This document shows, piece after piece, positions 25,017-32,187 of a stretch of 33,549 bases of DNA (position 1 is its first letter; the number at the start of each line of letters is the position of its first letter). Origin of the DNA: a virus (Duplodnaviria; Heunggongvirae; Uroviricota; Caudoviricetes). The stretch lies in IMG/VR virus record IMGVR_UViG_2778261567_000022. One strand, given 5' to 3'. Made by a program: the position numbers and the translations under genes. The notes under the pieces are model-generated. The model made no database searches, was not told the origin of the DNA, and saw only the letters and a list, made by a program, of their open reading frames with translations.

Positions 25017-25421
25017 TTACCTGCGTGATTGTCTGCCAGCGGCTGAATGCACATAGCGGGCAATTGCCGCTTTGCGGTTAATCGATGCCAGTGTTCTGGT
25101 CAGTTCTGCGTTGTGTTTGTGTGCCTGCTCTTCGTGGTACTGCCGCATGATTTTTCCGGCAGGCGTGAGCGGCTCCGGCTCTCCGGGCGGACGGCGCGGA
25201 CGAACGGCGACAAGCCAGCTGCGGTTGGTGCTGTCCGGTCGTCCGTTGAGTATGTCGGTGATGATGGCCGTGGTGGTGCGATCGGGACTGACGACCGTGA
25301 TTTCCAGCTCATCGCCCGGTTGTGGCCCCGTGGCAATGTTGTTCAGGGTCAGTAAGGGCGTGCGCTGGCGCATCATTTCGTCAAAACGCTGGCGCTGCAT
25401 GGCGCAATAAAAGCGGGTCAT
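25017..25421 (-). CDS. hypothetical protein, 134 aa, translationally coupled to gpA
   Basis: Start codon overlaps the gpA stop; no recognisable motif. Confidence 0.4.
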   Translation of the reverse strand: MTRFYCAMQRQRFDEMMRQRTPLLTLNNIATGPQPGDELEITVVSPDRTTTAIITDILNGRPDSTNRSWLVAVRPRRPPGEPEPLTPAGKIMRQYHEEQAHKHNAELTRTLASINRKAAIARYVHSAAGRQSRR

Positions 25422-27937
25422 TGTGGCGCCTCCGTATTCGGTGCGGGGGTGATATCAATGCGGCGGGTGCTGTCATTCCAGTACGCGGTGCGTCCGTCAG
25501 CCAGGCGCACGCGGGCACCGTGACGGACGGAAACGACGGCGCTTTCATGCAGTTGTACGCCCAGCGCATCAAGCTCGCGGGTGATTTGTGCGGTGATGTG
25601 TGGCTCAGCGGTCAGAGCGACACTCACGCGAACGCCGCCAGCGGGCGCACTGATGCCGCCGTTTTTCACGGTTTCCGTGTCAGGTGGCGGGTTTTTCAGC
25701 TGCCTGGTGAGTTGTTTTCGCTCTGTGGGTGTCAGTGACCTTAACCATTCACCCAAATCACCTTCCGGCAGGGTAAGTCGCTGCTCCCTGCGTCCGTCCG
25801 GCTGCCTTTCTGGCGGGGCGTTTATGGTCAGATTCTGGTCAGGGGGACAGTTATTGCCACGAGTCCAAGGTGCGGCAAAGCCGCACTCAACGTCAAAACC
25901 CTCGTCCGTGCGGTCTTCGTTTTCCGGCTTACGTCTGACCAGTTTCCAGGTGTCCGGGTGGGTGCATATGGTGTAGCGCTCCCCGAGTGACGGGGCGCGG
26001 ACGCCGTAAATGCGTTGCGGGAATTCGCCGTAGTCGTTGGCCTCTTCGGCAGTTTCGTATGCGGTGCGGACCAGGTACGTGTTGCGGGGAATGAGCACAC
26101 CACCCTGGCGGGTGATATAGGTGGCAAAACATCCCACGTCGGCGGCGGCCAGTATGGCGTCAATGTCGTCATGGTCCAGACGCTGCGGGGCAGCCGGGTT
26201 ACGGGCCATTTGCCCGGCAAGACGGCGGAGTTCGCGCCATACCTGGCGGGGAGGGATACCGAAGAACTGGAACTGGTGGATGCGGTGAAGGCCTGCCCAG
26301 CCGATGGCGTTCTCCACGGTTTCGGCCATGGTTTTGCCTGATTCCTTATCGACGTAAGGTTTGCCGGTTTTCGGGTCATTCCCCATGAAGGTGCTGGCGT
26401 CCAGGTTCTTACCGATATAGGTCGCGATATAGCTTGTCGGTGTGCCTTTTGCCGGGTCGATTTTTTTGCATTTAAAACGCGGGGAGATATCATCACCCAG
26501 CTCTGCGCGGTCCTCCCTGATGGCGGCGTTGCGCATGATTTCAGTGATACGGGCTTCGTTTTCCTGGCTGGTGAATACCAGCATGTGCCAGTGCGGTGTA
26601 CCGTCGTGGTGGGGCTCCACGGTGCGCACGCCGTACCAGCCCAGCCCGGCCTTGTCGATGGCCCTGCGGACGGCGGCGAAAAAGCGGTAAACCAGATAAT
26701 CACTGGCATCGCGTACCGTTGCTCCGCAGTATTTCGGGTTCAGGCTGCCGTCATCGTTCACGCTGTGAAAACGGGAAGGGGCTGTGACGGTGACGAAAAA
26801 CGCCACGTCGCCGCGTGCTTCGGCGACCTGCTCCATTCCCCGGGCGCAGGTCATCATCTCGTTACGGCGGTTACGCGGATTAGAGAGACCTGCCCAGTAG
26901 ATATCCTCAAGGCTGAACCGTTCTCCCTCTTCGTTCTCGATGTCCCAGGCCTTCAGAAAATCGCGGGTGCGCTGGCGTTTTTCGCGCCAGTCCAGTAACG
27001 CTTCATGGCTGATATATACCGATGTCTTACGTGACACCAGACCTGCGGCGCGTAACAGTTCTTCACGCCAGATGTCCCGGAGGTGTCTTAACTGACTGTT
27101 CCACCATGTCGCACAGGAAAGGCGCATGACCGCACCCGGCACCCGTTCCGGGTCGGGGTCGGTGCGGCGGTCGGGCCTGATTTCCAGCGACGGCCAGCAG
27201 GGTGGCGTGATACCCAGTTTTAACGCCATGTGTGCCAGTGGCTGGTAGGTCAGTAACCAGGTGAGCAGGTCATCGTCACCCCTGCCGGTCTTTTCGATGA
27301 CTTCATCACATGCGCGCTCCAGTGCGGTGGAAAACGCGGTGGCGGTCAGGGTGGCAAGGCGCTGGATTTCGTCACGGCTCAGCTGTGGCAGCATAAGCAG
27401 TTCATCCAGCCGTTCGCGCGCGGCGGTGGCCTTAAAGGCCGGGGTGGCAAAGCGTTCATTCACACGGGCGATACGTTTCAGGCGGGCACGCAGCCCGTGA
27501 CGAACGAAGTTATCCGCCGCATATGCGCTGTTATTCTTAAGCCCTTCCCGGCGTGCGCTCTCCTGTTTGCGGCTCAGGCGCGCCAGGTCACGGATGAGCG
27601 GACCGGCAAGAAACGGCGGCAGGGCGCGCAGCTCTGCCATGGCTTCAGATACCAGTGTTGGCGGATTCTCGTGTTTGTGCCGCGCCAGTTTTTCCAGCCT
27701 GATCCGACGCTCTTCGTCGTGGTAAAGATGCGAATTAATTCGCTTCCCTTCGTCTGTGGTTGTCAGGAAGGCGACGGTTTCTTCATCCAGTCTGGCGTCA
27801 GTGCGAATATCCTCGTTGATGTAGCTCTGAATGGCCTGGCGTAATGCGGTTGGCTGCGCTCTGCCGAACGTTTCAGGATCGATAACCGGTAGCGGGGCGT
27901 TCCACGGGTACGCCAGTTGTGCATTATGGTCGCTCAT
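25418..27937 (-). CDS. A: replication initiation protein, rolling-circle HUH endonuclease (P2 gpA-like)
   Basis: HUH motif (HHDGTPHWHMLVF) and tyrosine pair (SYIATYIGK) as in P2 A / phiX174 A superfamily; start set at ATG 27937, which overlaps the upstream stop. Confidence 0.8.
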   Translation of the reverse strand: MSDHNAQLAYPWNAPLPVIDPETFGRAQPTALRQAIQSYINEDIRTDARLDEETVAFLTTTDEGKRINSHLYHDEERRIRLEKLARHKHENPPTLVSEAMAELRALPPFLAGPLIRDLARLSRKQESARREGLKNNSAYAADNFVRHGLRARLKRIARVNERFATPAFKATAARERLDELLMLPQLSRDEIQRLATLTATAFSTALERACDEVIEKTGRGDDDLLTWLLTYQPLAHMALKLGITPPCWPSLEIRPDRRTDPDPERVPGAVMRLSCATWWNSQLRHLRDIWREELLRAAGLVSRKTSVYISHEALLDWREKRQRTRDFLKAWDIENEEGERFSLEDIYWAGLSNPRNRRNEMMTCARGMEQVAEARGDVAFFVTVTAPSRFHSVNDDGSLNPKYCGATVRDASDYLVYRFFAAVRRAIDKAGLGWYGVRTVEPHHDGTPHWHMLVFTSQENEARITEIMRNAAIREDRAELGDDISPRFKCKKIDPAKGTPTSYIATYIGKNLDASTFMGNDPKTGKPYVDKESGKTMAETVENAIGWAGLHRIHQFQFFGIPPRQVWRELRRLAGQMARNPAAPQRLDHDDIDAILAAADVGCFATYITRQGGVLIPRNTYLVRTAYETAEEANDYGEFPQRIYGVRAPSLGERYTICTHPDTWKLVRRKPENEDRTDEGFDVECGFAAPWTRGNNCPPDQNLTINAPPERQPDGRREQRLTLPEGDLGEWLRSLTPTERKQLTRQLKNPPPDTETVKNGGISAPAGGVRVSVALTAEPHITAQITRELDALGVQLHESAVVSVRHGARVRLADGRTAYWNDSTRRIDITPAPNTEAPQ

Positions 27938-28344
27938 GCGTCGCACTCCCCGGCAGTCGCCGCCTGAAACGCCGCGCGGTACAGCACGAGAAGGCGCTGG
28001 TATTCACCGATAAAGTCTTCTGCGGTGTATATACCTTTCACGGCCACGCTGTGGTTTGTCATTTCCAGAACAAGCGTCATCTCTGACGACGACCAACTGA
28101 TGGCGGTGCTGTCGGTTCCGTTGATGTGAAATAAACCAAAACCATCACCTTTCACGTCCACGCGGTAACGGTCGTCAACGGTGAAGGAGAAATCCCCGTA
28201 TGTGGTGACGTGTCTGGCGGCCTGTTTACAGGCGCGGCGGTAATAGTCGTGCCAGTCGTTCAGGCGGGAAGCCAGCCGGGGATCCACTGCCCACATCCAG
28301 TTAAAAAAATCCTGAATATCTGAAAGTCCCTTAACGCTCTTCAT
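27934..28344 (-). CDS. hypothetical early protein, 136 aa
   Basis: ATG 28344 with GGAGG RBS; coupled to gpA start; occupies the position of P2 B/orf82-83 but no recognised similarity. Confidence 0.45.
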   Translation of the reverse strand: MKSVKGLSDIQDFFNWMWAVDPRLASRLNDWHDYYRRACKQAARHVTTYGDFSFTVDDRYRVDVKGDGFGLFHINGTDSTAISWSSSEMTLVLEMTNHSVAVKGIYTAEDFIGEYQRLLVLYRAAFQAATAGECDA

Positions 28345-28412
28345 GAGAACCTCCGGTAACAGACGTGCGGAAGCCTCCCGCGCACGGGTGCGGGATGGCT
28401 TCAGGATGTTGT

Positions 28413-28640
28413 TTAGTGGTGGTGTTGCTGGTTGATAAGGTCCTGCAGTTCTGCCAGGTCTTCGGCCAGATAGCTGAAGACTGCCGCGTAATACCCGGCA
28501 GCGATACCATCGTTAAGTCGATGTAATGCGTTTGACTGCATGATGAAGGTGACAGATGCAGCCCGATGGAGTCTGCGGTTAATTTCAGTGCGGATGTGAA
28601 GACGCTCAGCGCGGGCGCGCTGTTGTTTGCGGTTTGCCAT
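28413..28640 (-). CDS. hypothetical early protein, 75 aa
   Basis: ATG 28640 with AAGAGG RBS; basic N-terminus (MANRKQQRARAERLHIRTEINRRL), acidic C-terminus ending HHH. Confidence 0.4.
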   Translation of the reverse strand: MANRKQQRARAERLHIRTEINRRLHRAASVTFIMQSNALHRLNDGIAAGYYAAVFSYLAEDLAELQDLINQQHHH

Positions 28641-28960
28641 GGTGTTTGGCCTCTTGTAGTAAGTTCTGAAAACTCACCAACCCGAGGCGGTAATCTCAGG
28701 GTGGCGAGACGTACAGGGTTACCACAACCGGCTACAAGAGATCCCGGCCCGACCGAAGTCGGCCCCGTACGCCCCGCCATAATTCTGACGCGAAAAAGAC
28801 GTGGCGATACAGTACGCACAAAAAAACCGCTGGCGCGGTTGTGCGCTCTTGTAGTCGGCGGGGTGGTAATCCCGGCACCCGTTTTATGAGGTGCGGGAAA
28901 ACTGTAACCCGACCAGGCGAACGCTGGCAAGCGGTTTTTTTGTGTGTGCATGATGATCAC
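28641..28960. ncRNA. structured non-coding region inside the early operon (candidate small RNA or RNA regulatory element)
   Basis: About 320 bp without a credible ORF in a tightly packed operon; inverted repeat CTCTTGTAG ... CTACAAGAG (28644-28733); hairpins around 28816-28847 and 28921-28932, the latter followed by TTTTTTT on plus; CTCTTGTAGT occurs twice. Confidence 0.3.
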
Positions 28961-29515
28961 TCAGCCCGGTAACAGTTCACAGAGCACTGCGTCAGTTGCG
29001 GTGCGGCGGTGGTAGAGATGAAACGCCGCATCGTCGTTAATGTGCATCTGTATCGTGCTGTTGATGTGTTCAGCGATCATGCAGAACGTCATGTTGTGTA
29101 TGTCGCGTAGCTCCGTGACCAGCTCAACCAGATGATCGCTGTATCTGGCGCAATGGTGGTTCTCACCGCATTTTTTCAGGTTGTAACCCCGTTTACGCAG
29201 TGTGTACCTCACTGTGCACTCACTGCATCCCACTTCCAGAGCCATTTCCTGTGCGGTTTTTACATGACGGTTTTTAATAAGAAAGGCTATGGCTTCTGTA
29301 CTCAGTGGTGCTTTTCTCTTGCGGCCAATCAGCCCACGATTACGTAAAAAACGAATCCGGTACATAACTGCTTTACGGGTTCGCTGAATTCGTTCAGCCA
29401 TCTGATGTGTGTTGTGTTCCTGATAAAGCGAGATGAGTAACCGATCTTCCTGCTGTGTCCACGCCTTCACATGTGCCGGGTCTTTGCCCGGTATTCCCAT
29501 AGGTGTAAGTCTCAT
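28961..29515 (-). CDS. DNA-binding protein with two helix-turn-helix-like segments, 184 aa
   Basis: ATG 29515 with GGAGG RBS; Myb/SANT-like segment (WTQQEDRLLISLYQEHNTHQMAERIQRTRKAVMYRIRFL) plus second HTH-like segment (VKTAQEMALEVGCSECTVRYTLRKRG). Confidence 0.45.
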   Translation of the reverse strand: MRLTPMGIPGKDPAHVKAWTQQEDRLLISLYQEHNTHQMAERIQRTRKAVMYRIRFLRNRGLIGRKRKAPLSTEAIAFLIKNRHVKTAQEMALEVGCSECTVRYTLRKRGYNLKKCGENHHCARYSDHLVELVTELRDIHNMTFCMIAEHINSTIQMHINDDAAFHLYHRRTATDAVLCELLPG

Positions 29516-29541
29516 CGCGATAACCTCCGTTACTGTTCCGG

Positions 29542-29793
29542 TTATTCGGTCGGGTTCAGGGTGTAATCAATGGCGTTTTCAATACGGCGTTTAAGGTCCC
29601 GGTGGATCTCACCTGGTGTTACTGGTGCGCCCGGACCGCTCAGCGTTGCCGTGAAGTCGTCGATTTCCTCCAGTAACAGATTGCGGAGTACGGCGATGTG
29701 GTGGCGTGCGTCTTTACCGGGTTTACGTGCGTTGGTGGTGTACTTGCTGATCATGGCCGCAGCTCTCCGTGGGCTTGTGTTTCTGATTTCCAT
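29542..29793 (-). CDS. hypothetical early protein (start uncertain)
   Basis: ORF in the early operon; no motif. Confidence 0.3.
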   Translation of the reverse strand: MEIRNTSPRRAAAMISKYTTNARKPGKDARHHIAVLRNLLLEEIDDFTATLSGPGAPVTPGEIHRDLKRRIENAIDYTLNPTE

Positions 29794-32080: not shown

Positions 32081-32187
32081 CTGGTATCCTCCGTTATTGG
32101 CCCCTTTTTCGAATAGGGACCATGTAGAACCAATTGCGACTATTCTTGTGTTGCTATACACAAAAATTATTGGAGATTAGAAAAATT
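32081..32187. promoter_or_regulatory. immunity switch region: divergent early (Pe) and repressor (Pc) promoters/operators
   Basis: Position between divergent cox-like and C genes, as in P2; individual elements not verified. Confidence 0.45.

Follow-up and report, generated by a model that had tools for sequence, protein, structure and literature searches.

What is the function of the stretch of about 320 bp at positions 28641-28960 of the viral sequence IMGVR_UViG_2778261567_000022, a record of 33,549 nucleotides (nt) that was analysed over its whole length and is here called the window? The original prediction had described this stretch as structured and non-coding, embedded in an otherwise tightly packed early operon, and had proposed a phage small RNA, an antisense regulator or an attenuator controlling the downstream replication genes. 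The answer reached here, to which a probability of about 0.8 is given, is that this stretch represents an IsrK–C4 cassette for RNA-based immunity, of the type known as seqA–CI–seqC in phage P4 and c4–icd–ant in phage P1, located in the early region of a P88-like prophage (genus Xuanwuvirus, P2 family). Its two RNAs most likely keep an anti-repressor gene switched off, and perhaps the replication gene behind it as well.

The region is situated between a 184-amino acid (aa) open reading frame (ORF) of the helix-turn-helix (HTH) type and a 75-aa ORF, both on the minus strand, and the genes around it are closely packed or overlapping, in agreement with the earlier description. A covariance-model search against Rfam, one of the checks proposed at the outset, identified an isrK-family RNA and a C4-family RNA above their thresholds, both on the minus strand and with E values of 1e-12 to 1e-14. 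The features of the cassette are given below in the direction of transcription.

28932..28943, minus strand: A-rich block ACAAAAAAACCGC, invariant, directly upstream of the -35 box
28901..28930, minus strand: sigma-70-like promoter with -35 box TTGCCA (28930..28925), a spacer of 18 nt and -10 box TACAGT (28906..28901)
28820..28894, minus strand: isrK-family RNA, the equivalent of P4 seqA (Rfam RF01394, 65.0 bits, threshold 50, full model 1-77)
28863..28869, minus strand: site a1, UUACCAC, in the loop of isrK hairpin 2, complementary to site a' of C4
28846..28854, minus strand: site b1, CUACAAGAG, in the isrK linker, exactly complementary to site b' of C4
28820..28840, minus strand: intrinsic terminator of the isrK-like RNA, called by the terminator scan, with stem AACCGC/GCGGUU and loop GCCA
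28697..28784, minus strand: C4-family antisense RNA of the P1 C4 / P4 CI type (Rfam RF01695, 80.4 bits, threshold 45, full model 1-87)
28732..28740, minus strand: site b', CUCUUGUAG, in the 12-nt loop of C4 hairpin 2
28719..28725, minus strand: site a', GUGGUAA, in the single-stranded C4 junction
28687..28693, minus strand: site a2, UUACCGC, just 3' of C4, forming six Watson-Crick pairs and one G-U pair with a'
28651..28659, minus strand: site b2, CUACAAGAG, in the leader of the 75-aa gene, exactly complementary to b'
28413..28640, minus strand: gene for a 75-aa epsilon-like 'derepression protein' (epsilon'), a putative anti-repressor and the direct target gene, with its AUG at 28640

Each of the two pairing sites of C4 thus has one partner upstream, in the isrK element, and one downstream. 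Site b2 shares positions with AAGAGG (28655..28650), the Shine-Dalgarno sequence of the 75-aa gene, located 9 nt before the AUG. Of the b 9-mer there are three copies in the 33.5-kb window, against 0.12 expected, and all three belong to the cassette (b1, b' and b2). The exact 29-mer spanning a' and b' was not found in IMG/VR or in 185,579 species-representative genomes, and the combination present in the window is rare.

Relatives were assembled from 62 IMG/VR loci found via the 75-aa protein, supplemented with Escherichia phage P88 and Citrobacter phage Shae_phiSM (phiSM). All of them carry the whole region of 331 nt, with 82-94% identity. Forty-three distinct sequences were aligned (alignment A1) and served as the set for the pairing and covariation counts. 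The scaffold outside the six short blocks a1, b1, b', a', a2 and b2 is 83-96% identical to the window, compared with 46-79% for the blocks, and 36 of the 49 block columns are variable versus 88 of 257 in the scaffold. The six blocks vary in concert: a' pairs at 7/7 positions with a2 in all 43 sequences and with a1 in 40, and b' pairs at 9/9 positions with b1 in 42 and at least at eight of nine with b2 in all 43. Non-cognate pairings average 4.9-5.0 of 7 for the a sites and 6.4-6.7 of 9 for the b sites. In total, seven a-types and 13 b-types were found in 23 combinations.

Upon comparison of the four long-range helices, two-sided changes were observed at four positions of a1-a' (96% paired), seven of the nine positions of b1-b' (99% paired), four positions of a'-a2 (100% paired) and six positions of b'-b2 (95.6% paired), with at most five pair types per position. 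The covariation score was 0.24 versus 0.07 after shuffling (none of 500 shuffles reached 0.24) and 0.02-0.08 in slid controls. The covariation that had been proposed as a check in related prophages was found, and it is carried by the long-range a and b helices, with little contribution from the internal stems. In one locus, L020 (143-498), the isrK part has a1 and b1 of one specificity and C4 has, together with a2 and b2, another (a1 pairs at 5/7 positions, b1 at 6/9), and loci L006 and L030 show single defects in a1; all three are apparent recombinants. C4 always matches a2/b2, which suggests that the downstream pairing is more strongly selected.

That the region is structured was borne out by folding. 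A minus-strand RNA from 28900 to 28630 has a minimum energy of -118.1 kcal/mol (z = -5.75), and 0/200 shuffles were as good. In the C4 element, a closing stem of 17 bp is combined with two hairpins. Its mature form, as predicted from the annotation of P1 by analogy, would run from approximately 28778 to 28700 (about 79 nt), and the minimum-energy fold of 28778..28700 is the Y-shape of the family (-46.9 kcal/mol, z = -4.25) with a' and b' unpaired. All C4 stems are 100% paired in the 43 relatives, with little variation. The sole sequence feature supporting processing to this mature form is the tRNA-like closing stem, followed by GCCACC. The isrK element has two 5' hairpins, a single-stranded linker, a terminator hairpin and seven U. 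Its terminator has a six-pair stem (28840..28825) and a U-run (28826..28820), the last two stem pairs making use of the first two U, and the stem is essentially invariant in the relatives. The c4-a1b1 model RF03163 gave no match in 28200-29200, even at E ≤ 10; the a1/b1 function is present in the window within an isrK-type scaffold instead of one of the RF03163 type. In the minimum-energy fold of the 271-nt read-through RNA, the a1/b1 segment pairs with a'/b' in cis. This modelled pairing would fit both roles that can be considered for a1/b1, as a co-target or as a decoy for C4.

The predicted transcription start is found 7 nt downstream of the -10 box, at 28894, which is the first base of the isrK match. 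The candidate promoter agrees with the consensus at 9/12 positions and is the sole promoter-like site found in 28300-29600 (TTGCCA-18-TACAGT); its placement is that of the P4 promoter PLE, which precedes the isrK-family match of P4. The -35 box and its distance of 18 nt from the -10 box are the same in 43/43 relatives, the -10 box is TACAGT or TACATT, and the spacer sequence varies. The A-rich block upstream may be a UP-like element. It forms the 5' edge of the conserved cassette, and its complement is a run of seven T on the plus strand (28935-28941). Conservation in alignment A1 starts at column 33, around window position 28943, and upstream of it the sequences of the relatives are unrelated. 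The Cox/C switch region of the window (32142-32167) contains a palindrome, TTGTGT-N6-ACACAA, of which a 9-nt half-site-like match, ACACAAAAA, is located at 28936-28944 in the invariant block upstream of the -35 box. This recurrence may be due to chance or may mark a regulator half-site; with this match as the only indication, a C-repressor operator at the isrK promoter was judged not convincing.

The product of the directly controlled gene was assigned by similarity. The 75-aa protein matches the Derepression protein family of Pfam (PF25738, 27.5 bits, threshold 27) and phrog_3688 (1e-31), its homologs are named 'derepression protein' in RefSeq, and a BLASTP comparison with epsilon of P4 gave 34% identity over 50 aa (E = 2e-8). 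No solved structure was matched at E ≤ 1. The protein thus appears to be a distant homolog of P4 epsilon and a putative anti-repressor. P4 epsilon itself is an anti-repressor that inactivates the C repressor of P2. The other genes adjoining the cassette and its target are the following.

27934..28344, minus strand: 136-aa ORF (phrog_3237), the end of which overlaps the start of gene A
25418..27946, minus strand: 842-aa replication endonuclease gpA of the HUH type (PF05840, 3.5e-105), encoded by gene A, the distal gene of the unit
28961-29515, minus strand: 184-aa HTH-type ORF, adjoining the cassette upstream

A gpA homolog is located approximately 475-490 nt downstream of epsilon' in 58/58 relatives with enough downstream sequence, so that the cassette is linked to epsilon' and gpA in all 58 informative cases. 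In 50 of these 58, the next gene after epsilon' is a homolog of the 136-aa ORF; the 136-aa ORF of the window showed no similarity to orf151 or orf106 of P4.

By analogy with P1, P4 and Gifsy-1, the promoter would be active in the lysogen and most transcripts would end at the terminator, yielding a short IsrK-like RNA. Read-through RNA would be processed, by RNase P at the 5' end and by trimming at the 3' end, to a C4 of about 79 nt. Pairing of C4 with a2/b2 would block ribosome binding and keep the anti-repressor silent, and the loss of translation would probably cause Rho to end transcription ahead of the small ORF and gene A. Sites a1 and b1 may act as a second target needed for termination, as in the P4 model, or as a decoy which titrates C4 and turns the gene on, as in the Gifsy-1 IsrK model. 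The variable a and b sequences would then represent RNA-based immunity specificities, as between P1 and P7. Compared with the functions proposed originally, a small-RNA region controlling downstream genes is retained, but neither RNA is antisense to the operon: both have the sense of the operon and would be co-transcribed with the target, and the antisense character is limited to the two short loops through which the C4-like RNA pairs. Control of replication would likewise be indirect, with the epsilon-like gene as the direct target and gene A reached through polarity.

Several points weigh against this reading. The activity of the promoter, the efficiency of the terminator, RNA processing and the existence of a short and a long isoform were all inferred, as was polarity onto gene A, and there is a gap of 69 nt between epsilon' and the next ORF. 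The epsilon assignment depends on a borderline Pfam score (27.5 versus 27) and on 50 aligned residues with 34% identity. Little covariation comes from the internal stems, in which a single compensatory pair was seen (CG-to-UA, in 14 sequences); since they hardly vary, they neither support nor contradict the fold. The published models for a1/b1, co-target in P4 and decoy in Gifsy-1, point in opposite directions. Moreover, transcripts from the early promoter Pe must somehow pass the isrK terminator.

The alternative that survives best is an activation switch of the Gifsy-1 type, in which the read-through mRNA would be silent through cis pairing of a1/b1 with C4, and short IsrK would open it in trans and turn on the anti-repressor, leading to induction; C4 would then not primarily be a repressor. 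The fold of the 271-nt read-through RNA, with a1/b1 and a'/b' paired in cis, is what such a switch would need, and the Gifsy-1 isrK locus works in this way experimentally (PMC4825925); it has an RNA of the same family, an ORF start at about +107/+120, comparable to the AUG at +115 in the window, and an anti-repressor further downstream. The three-way covariation, on the other hand, takes in a2/b2, with b2 on the Shine-Dalgarno sequence, as predicted by occlusion of that sequence by C4, which has been shown for P1. A leader hairpin that would sequester the Shine-Dalgarno sequence was predicted from the window by itself; it lacks conservation in the relatives (61% paired, no compensatory changes) and was left unused in the model. 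Activation by IsrK is therefore retained as a possible but less favoured account, and the two models, C4 as repressor and IsrK as activator, are not mutually exclusive.

A coding function is very unlikely. The description of the region as non-coding has to accommodate a mechanical ORF of 209 aa (28331-28960, minus strand) which spans it completely. Within it, a frame of 149 codons (28331-28780, minus strand) starts at an AUG inside the 5' stem of C4, at +115 from the isrK start; it covers the entire 75-aa gene, though in a different frame, and ends 11 nt past the start of the 136-aa ORF. This frame is open over 147-150 codons in 54/63 relatives, the equivalent frame of P4 was formerly annotated as 'cI protein', and in Gifsy-1 the corresponding AUG opens orf45, which is translated (PMC4825925). 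Against a real gene, the variable columns of the leader are spread over the codon positions as 21, 21 and 22, with no third-position bias, and indels cut the frame to 57-65 codons in five loci. An open frame over the 75-aa gene is, moreover, expected from the amino-acid sequence of that gene (synonymous resampling, P 0.07-0.65), and the two covariance models together with the RNA-RNA covariation already explain the sequence. The hidden ORF, in its 209-aa or its 149-aa version, was rejected as unsupported, and the claim that the region lacks a credible ORF held after testing.

The hairpin with seven T on the plus strand, taken originally as a sign of a transcript antisense to the operon, did not stand up. 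It would imply an antisense small RNA, or an antisense terminator, ending at 28922-28941, where a stem of only 4 bp (28922-28925 with 28930-28933) precedes the T-run at 28935-28941. The plus strand of the whole region does fold better than shuffled sequences (z = -3.2), as the complement of any structured RNA does. The hairpin was, however, not called by the terminator scan, its local fold has a z of +1.29 (188/200 shuffles were as good), and the stem can form in only 16/43 relatives. No plus-strand promoter-like site was found in 28300-29600, nor any plus-strand Rfam match near threshold, and the hairpin and T-run lie opposite the -35 box of the minus-strand promoter and the A-tract preceding it. 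Of the two candidate terminators, it is the minus-strand one at 28840..28820 that is convincing, and a plus-strand RNA is considered highly improbable. An ordinary intergenic spacer with terminator and promoter only, both of which are present as candidate signals, has a negligible chance of being the explanation, as it predicts neither the two Rfam matches nor the three-way covariation of six blocks.

Apart from gpA, the window encodes Cox, a C-like repressor and an integrase. Its nearest annotated relatives, phiSM and P88, belong to the genus Xuanwuvirus of the Peduoviridae, and the element that hosts the IsrK–C4 cassette is a complete phage of the P2 family (gpA, Cox, C and integrase), of the P88-like Xuanwuvirus type. 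The combination typical of P4-like satellites, a gene set with alpha primase, sid, psu and delta and without structural genes, was found neither in the window nor in its relatives. Of 5426 complete E. coli genomes, 1180 contain a match to the segment 28400-29000 or to some portion of it, and in 117 of those 1180 the match extends over 80% or more of the segment.

In the GenBank and RefSeq records examined (P88, phiSM and one E. coli prophage), the gap of 320 bp is without any annotated feature; the RefSeq E. coli prophage is 94.8% identical across the region and its equivalent gap is likewise unannotated. At locus L068 (E. coli NZ_CP148318, 4742-5061), RefSeq lists no feature over the cassette, and the locus tag between those of the derepression protein (RS21560) and of a DNA-binding protein (RS21550) is absent from the feature table. 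The papers on P88 and phiSM do not mention the cassette, and no description of it in P88-like P2-family phages, directly before an epsilon homolog and gpA, was found in the literature.

Conservation of the cassette begins sharply at about 28943, and the gene immediately upstream differs between relatives. The 184-aa HTH protein occupies this position in just 18/64 loci; P88 has a serine-protease lipoprotein there, and some lineages have no extra gene. The segment corresponding to 28943-29515 of the window looks like a cargo slot. A search of the flanking ORFs and the cargo gene of P88 with the defence-system models of PADLOC yielded nothing meaningful. Downstream, in the interval between epsilon' and the 136-aa ORF, a GC-rich hairpin of approximately 7 bp (CCCGCGC ACGG GTGCGGG, 28377-28394) was observed, with no U-run after it on either strand.

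The P4-like satellites were included for comparison, with 80 loci (L069-L148) upstream of epsilon. Their seqA, CI and seqC show a combinatorial a/b polymorphism as well, with three a-types and about seven b-types, and the polarity of their a-pair is inverted compared with the P88-like phages and P1. Because of this inversion, some common C4 loops of helper phages are complementary to common CI loops of satellites: the commonest helper loops, GUGGAAA and UUGAGAA, are complementary to the commonest satellite loops, UUUCCAC and UUCUCAC, the a' GUGGAAA of helpers fitting the a' UUUCCAC of satellites exactly. The a-type of the window itself, GUGGUAA, does not fit this pattern. The complementarity could point, on weak evidence, to cross-talk between helper and satellite or to a flipped helix. 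The wider proposal is that the P88-like phages, members of the P2 family to which the P4 helper P2 belongs, have a complete P4-type cassette of their own, with RNA immunity and epsilon, perhaps gating gene A, with a polymorphic and reassorting two-site code, RNA cross-talk between helper and satellite, and a common origin with the immunity/epsilon module of P4. Taken together, these elements make a doubtful proposal.

If the assignment as an IsrK–C4 cassette is correct, an unannotated gap of 320 bp becomes a defined regulatory cassette, the base-pairing rules of which can be put to the test. P88-like P2-family phages are then predicted to have a second layer of immunity, based on RNA and with many heteroimmune specificities, which would control an anti-repressor and possibly replication. 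As the mechanism is textbook knowledge from P1 and P4, the gain lies in annotation and context and not in a new principle.

Related systems have been described in several phages. The IsrK–C4 system corresponds to seqA/CI of P4 (PMC3632133), and the c4 and c4-a1b1 motifs have been reported as such (PMC2864571). Similar systems in P1, P7, N15 and lambdoid prophages are pointed out by Barquist et al. The mechanism of IsrK, a structural homolog of SeqA of P4, was studied by Hershko-Shalev et al. in Gifsy-1, where it is located upstream of an anti-repressor (PMC4825925).

The likeness to P4 extends over the whole unit. The same two Rfam families occur in the same order (seqA with 60.8 bits to isrK, CI with 74.9 bits to C4), behind a similarly placed promoter with a related -35 box (TTGCCT in P4), and the first RNA ends in a hairpin and seven U. 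Complementarity at two sites, upstream and downstream, is shared, the downstream b site lying on the Shine-Dalgarno sequence in front of the first ORF, as are an epsilon homolog in the operon and a replication gene in last position. P4-like satellites also have the same reassorting a/b polymorphism. P4 is a satellite, however, whereas the element in the window is a complete phage of the P2 family, with gpA, integrase and a Cox/C switch. The first ORF of the window is the epsilon homolog, 56 nt after C4, while in P4 kil/eta comes first and epsilon follows about 245 nt further. The replication gene encodes an HUH endonuclease (gpA) instead of the alpha primase-helicase, and the polarity of a-pairing is inverted with respect to the P4-like elements.

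In P1, the order promoter, a1, b1, C4, a2, b2 and small ORF is the same, with very similar spacing according to the annotation of the P1 record, and b2 covers the ribosome binding site of the small ORF (icd in P1). The C4 model matches both the window and P1 (68.8 bits for c4 of P1), the polarity of a' (xUNNNAA) is the same in both, and in P1/P7 an anti-repressor is controlled and variable a and b blocks define heteroimmunity, as is proposed for the window. The a1/b1 segment of P1 differs in matching RF03163 (51 bits) and isrK only weakly (35 bits), compared with 65 bits to isrK and no RF03163 match in the window; P4 scores 44 bits on the RF03163 model. The target proteins are unrelated (Icd/Ant in P1, epsilon-like in the window), and no C1-type operator is known or was found at the promoter of the window.

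In the isrK–orf45 (STnc1160)–anrP locus of Gifsy-1 in Salmonella, as is predicted for the window, an isrK-family RNA is made from a promoter of its own and ends at a leaky terminator, followed by a structured RNA with an AUG in its 5' part at about +107/+120 (+115 in the window) and by an anti-repressor gene (PMC4825925). Gifsy-1 is a lambdoid prophage, AnrP belongs to another anti-repressor family, and the logic supported there is activation by short IsrK. The frame from the C4 AUG of the window runs past the start of the target gene, so that translational coupling of the orf45 type cannot work in the same way. Finally, lambdoid Stx-converting and related phages such as 1720a-02 carry C4 (82.3 bits) and isrK (59.3 bits) in tandem before a small ORF and an anti-repressor. 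The scaffold of this type is 71-74% identical to that of the window, whereas the phage backbone, the downstream anti-repressor and the a and b sequences are different.

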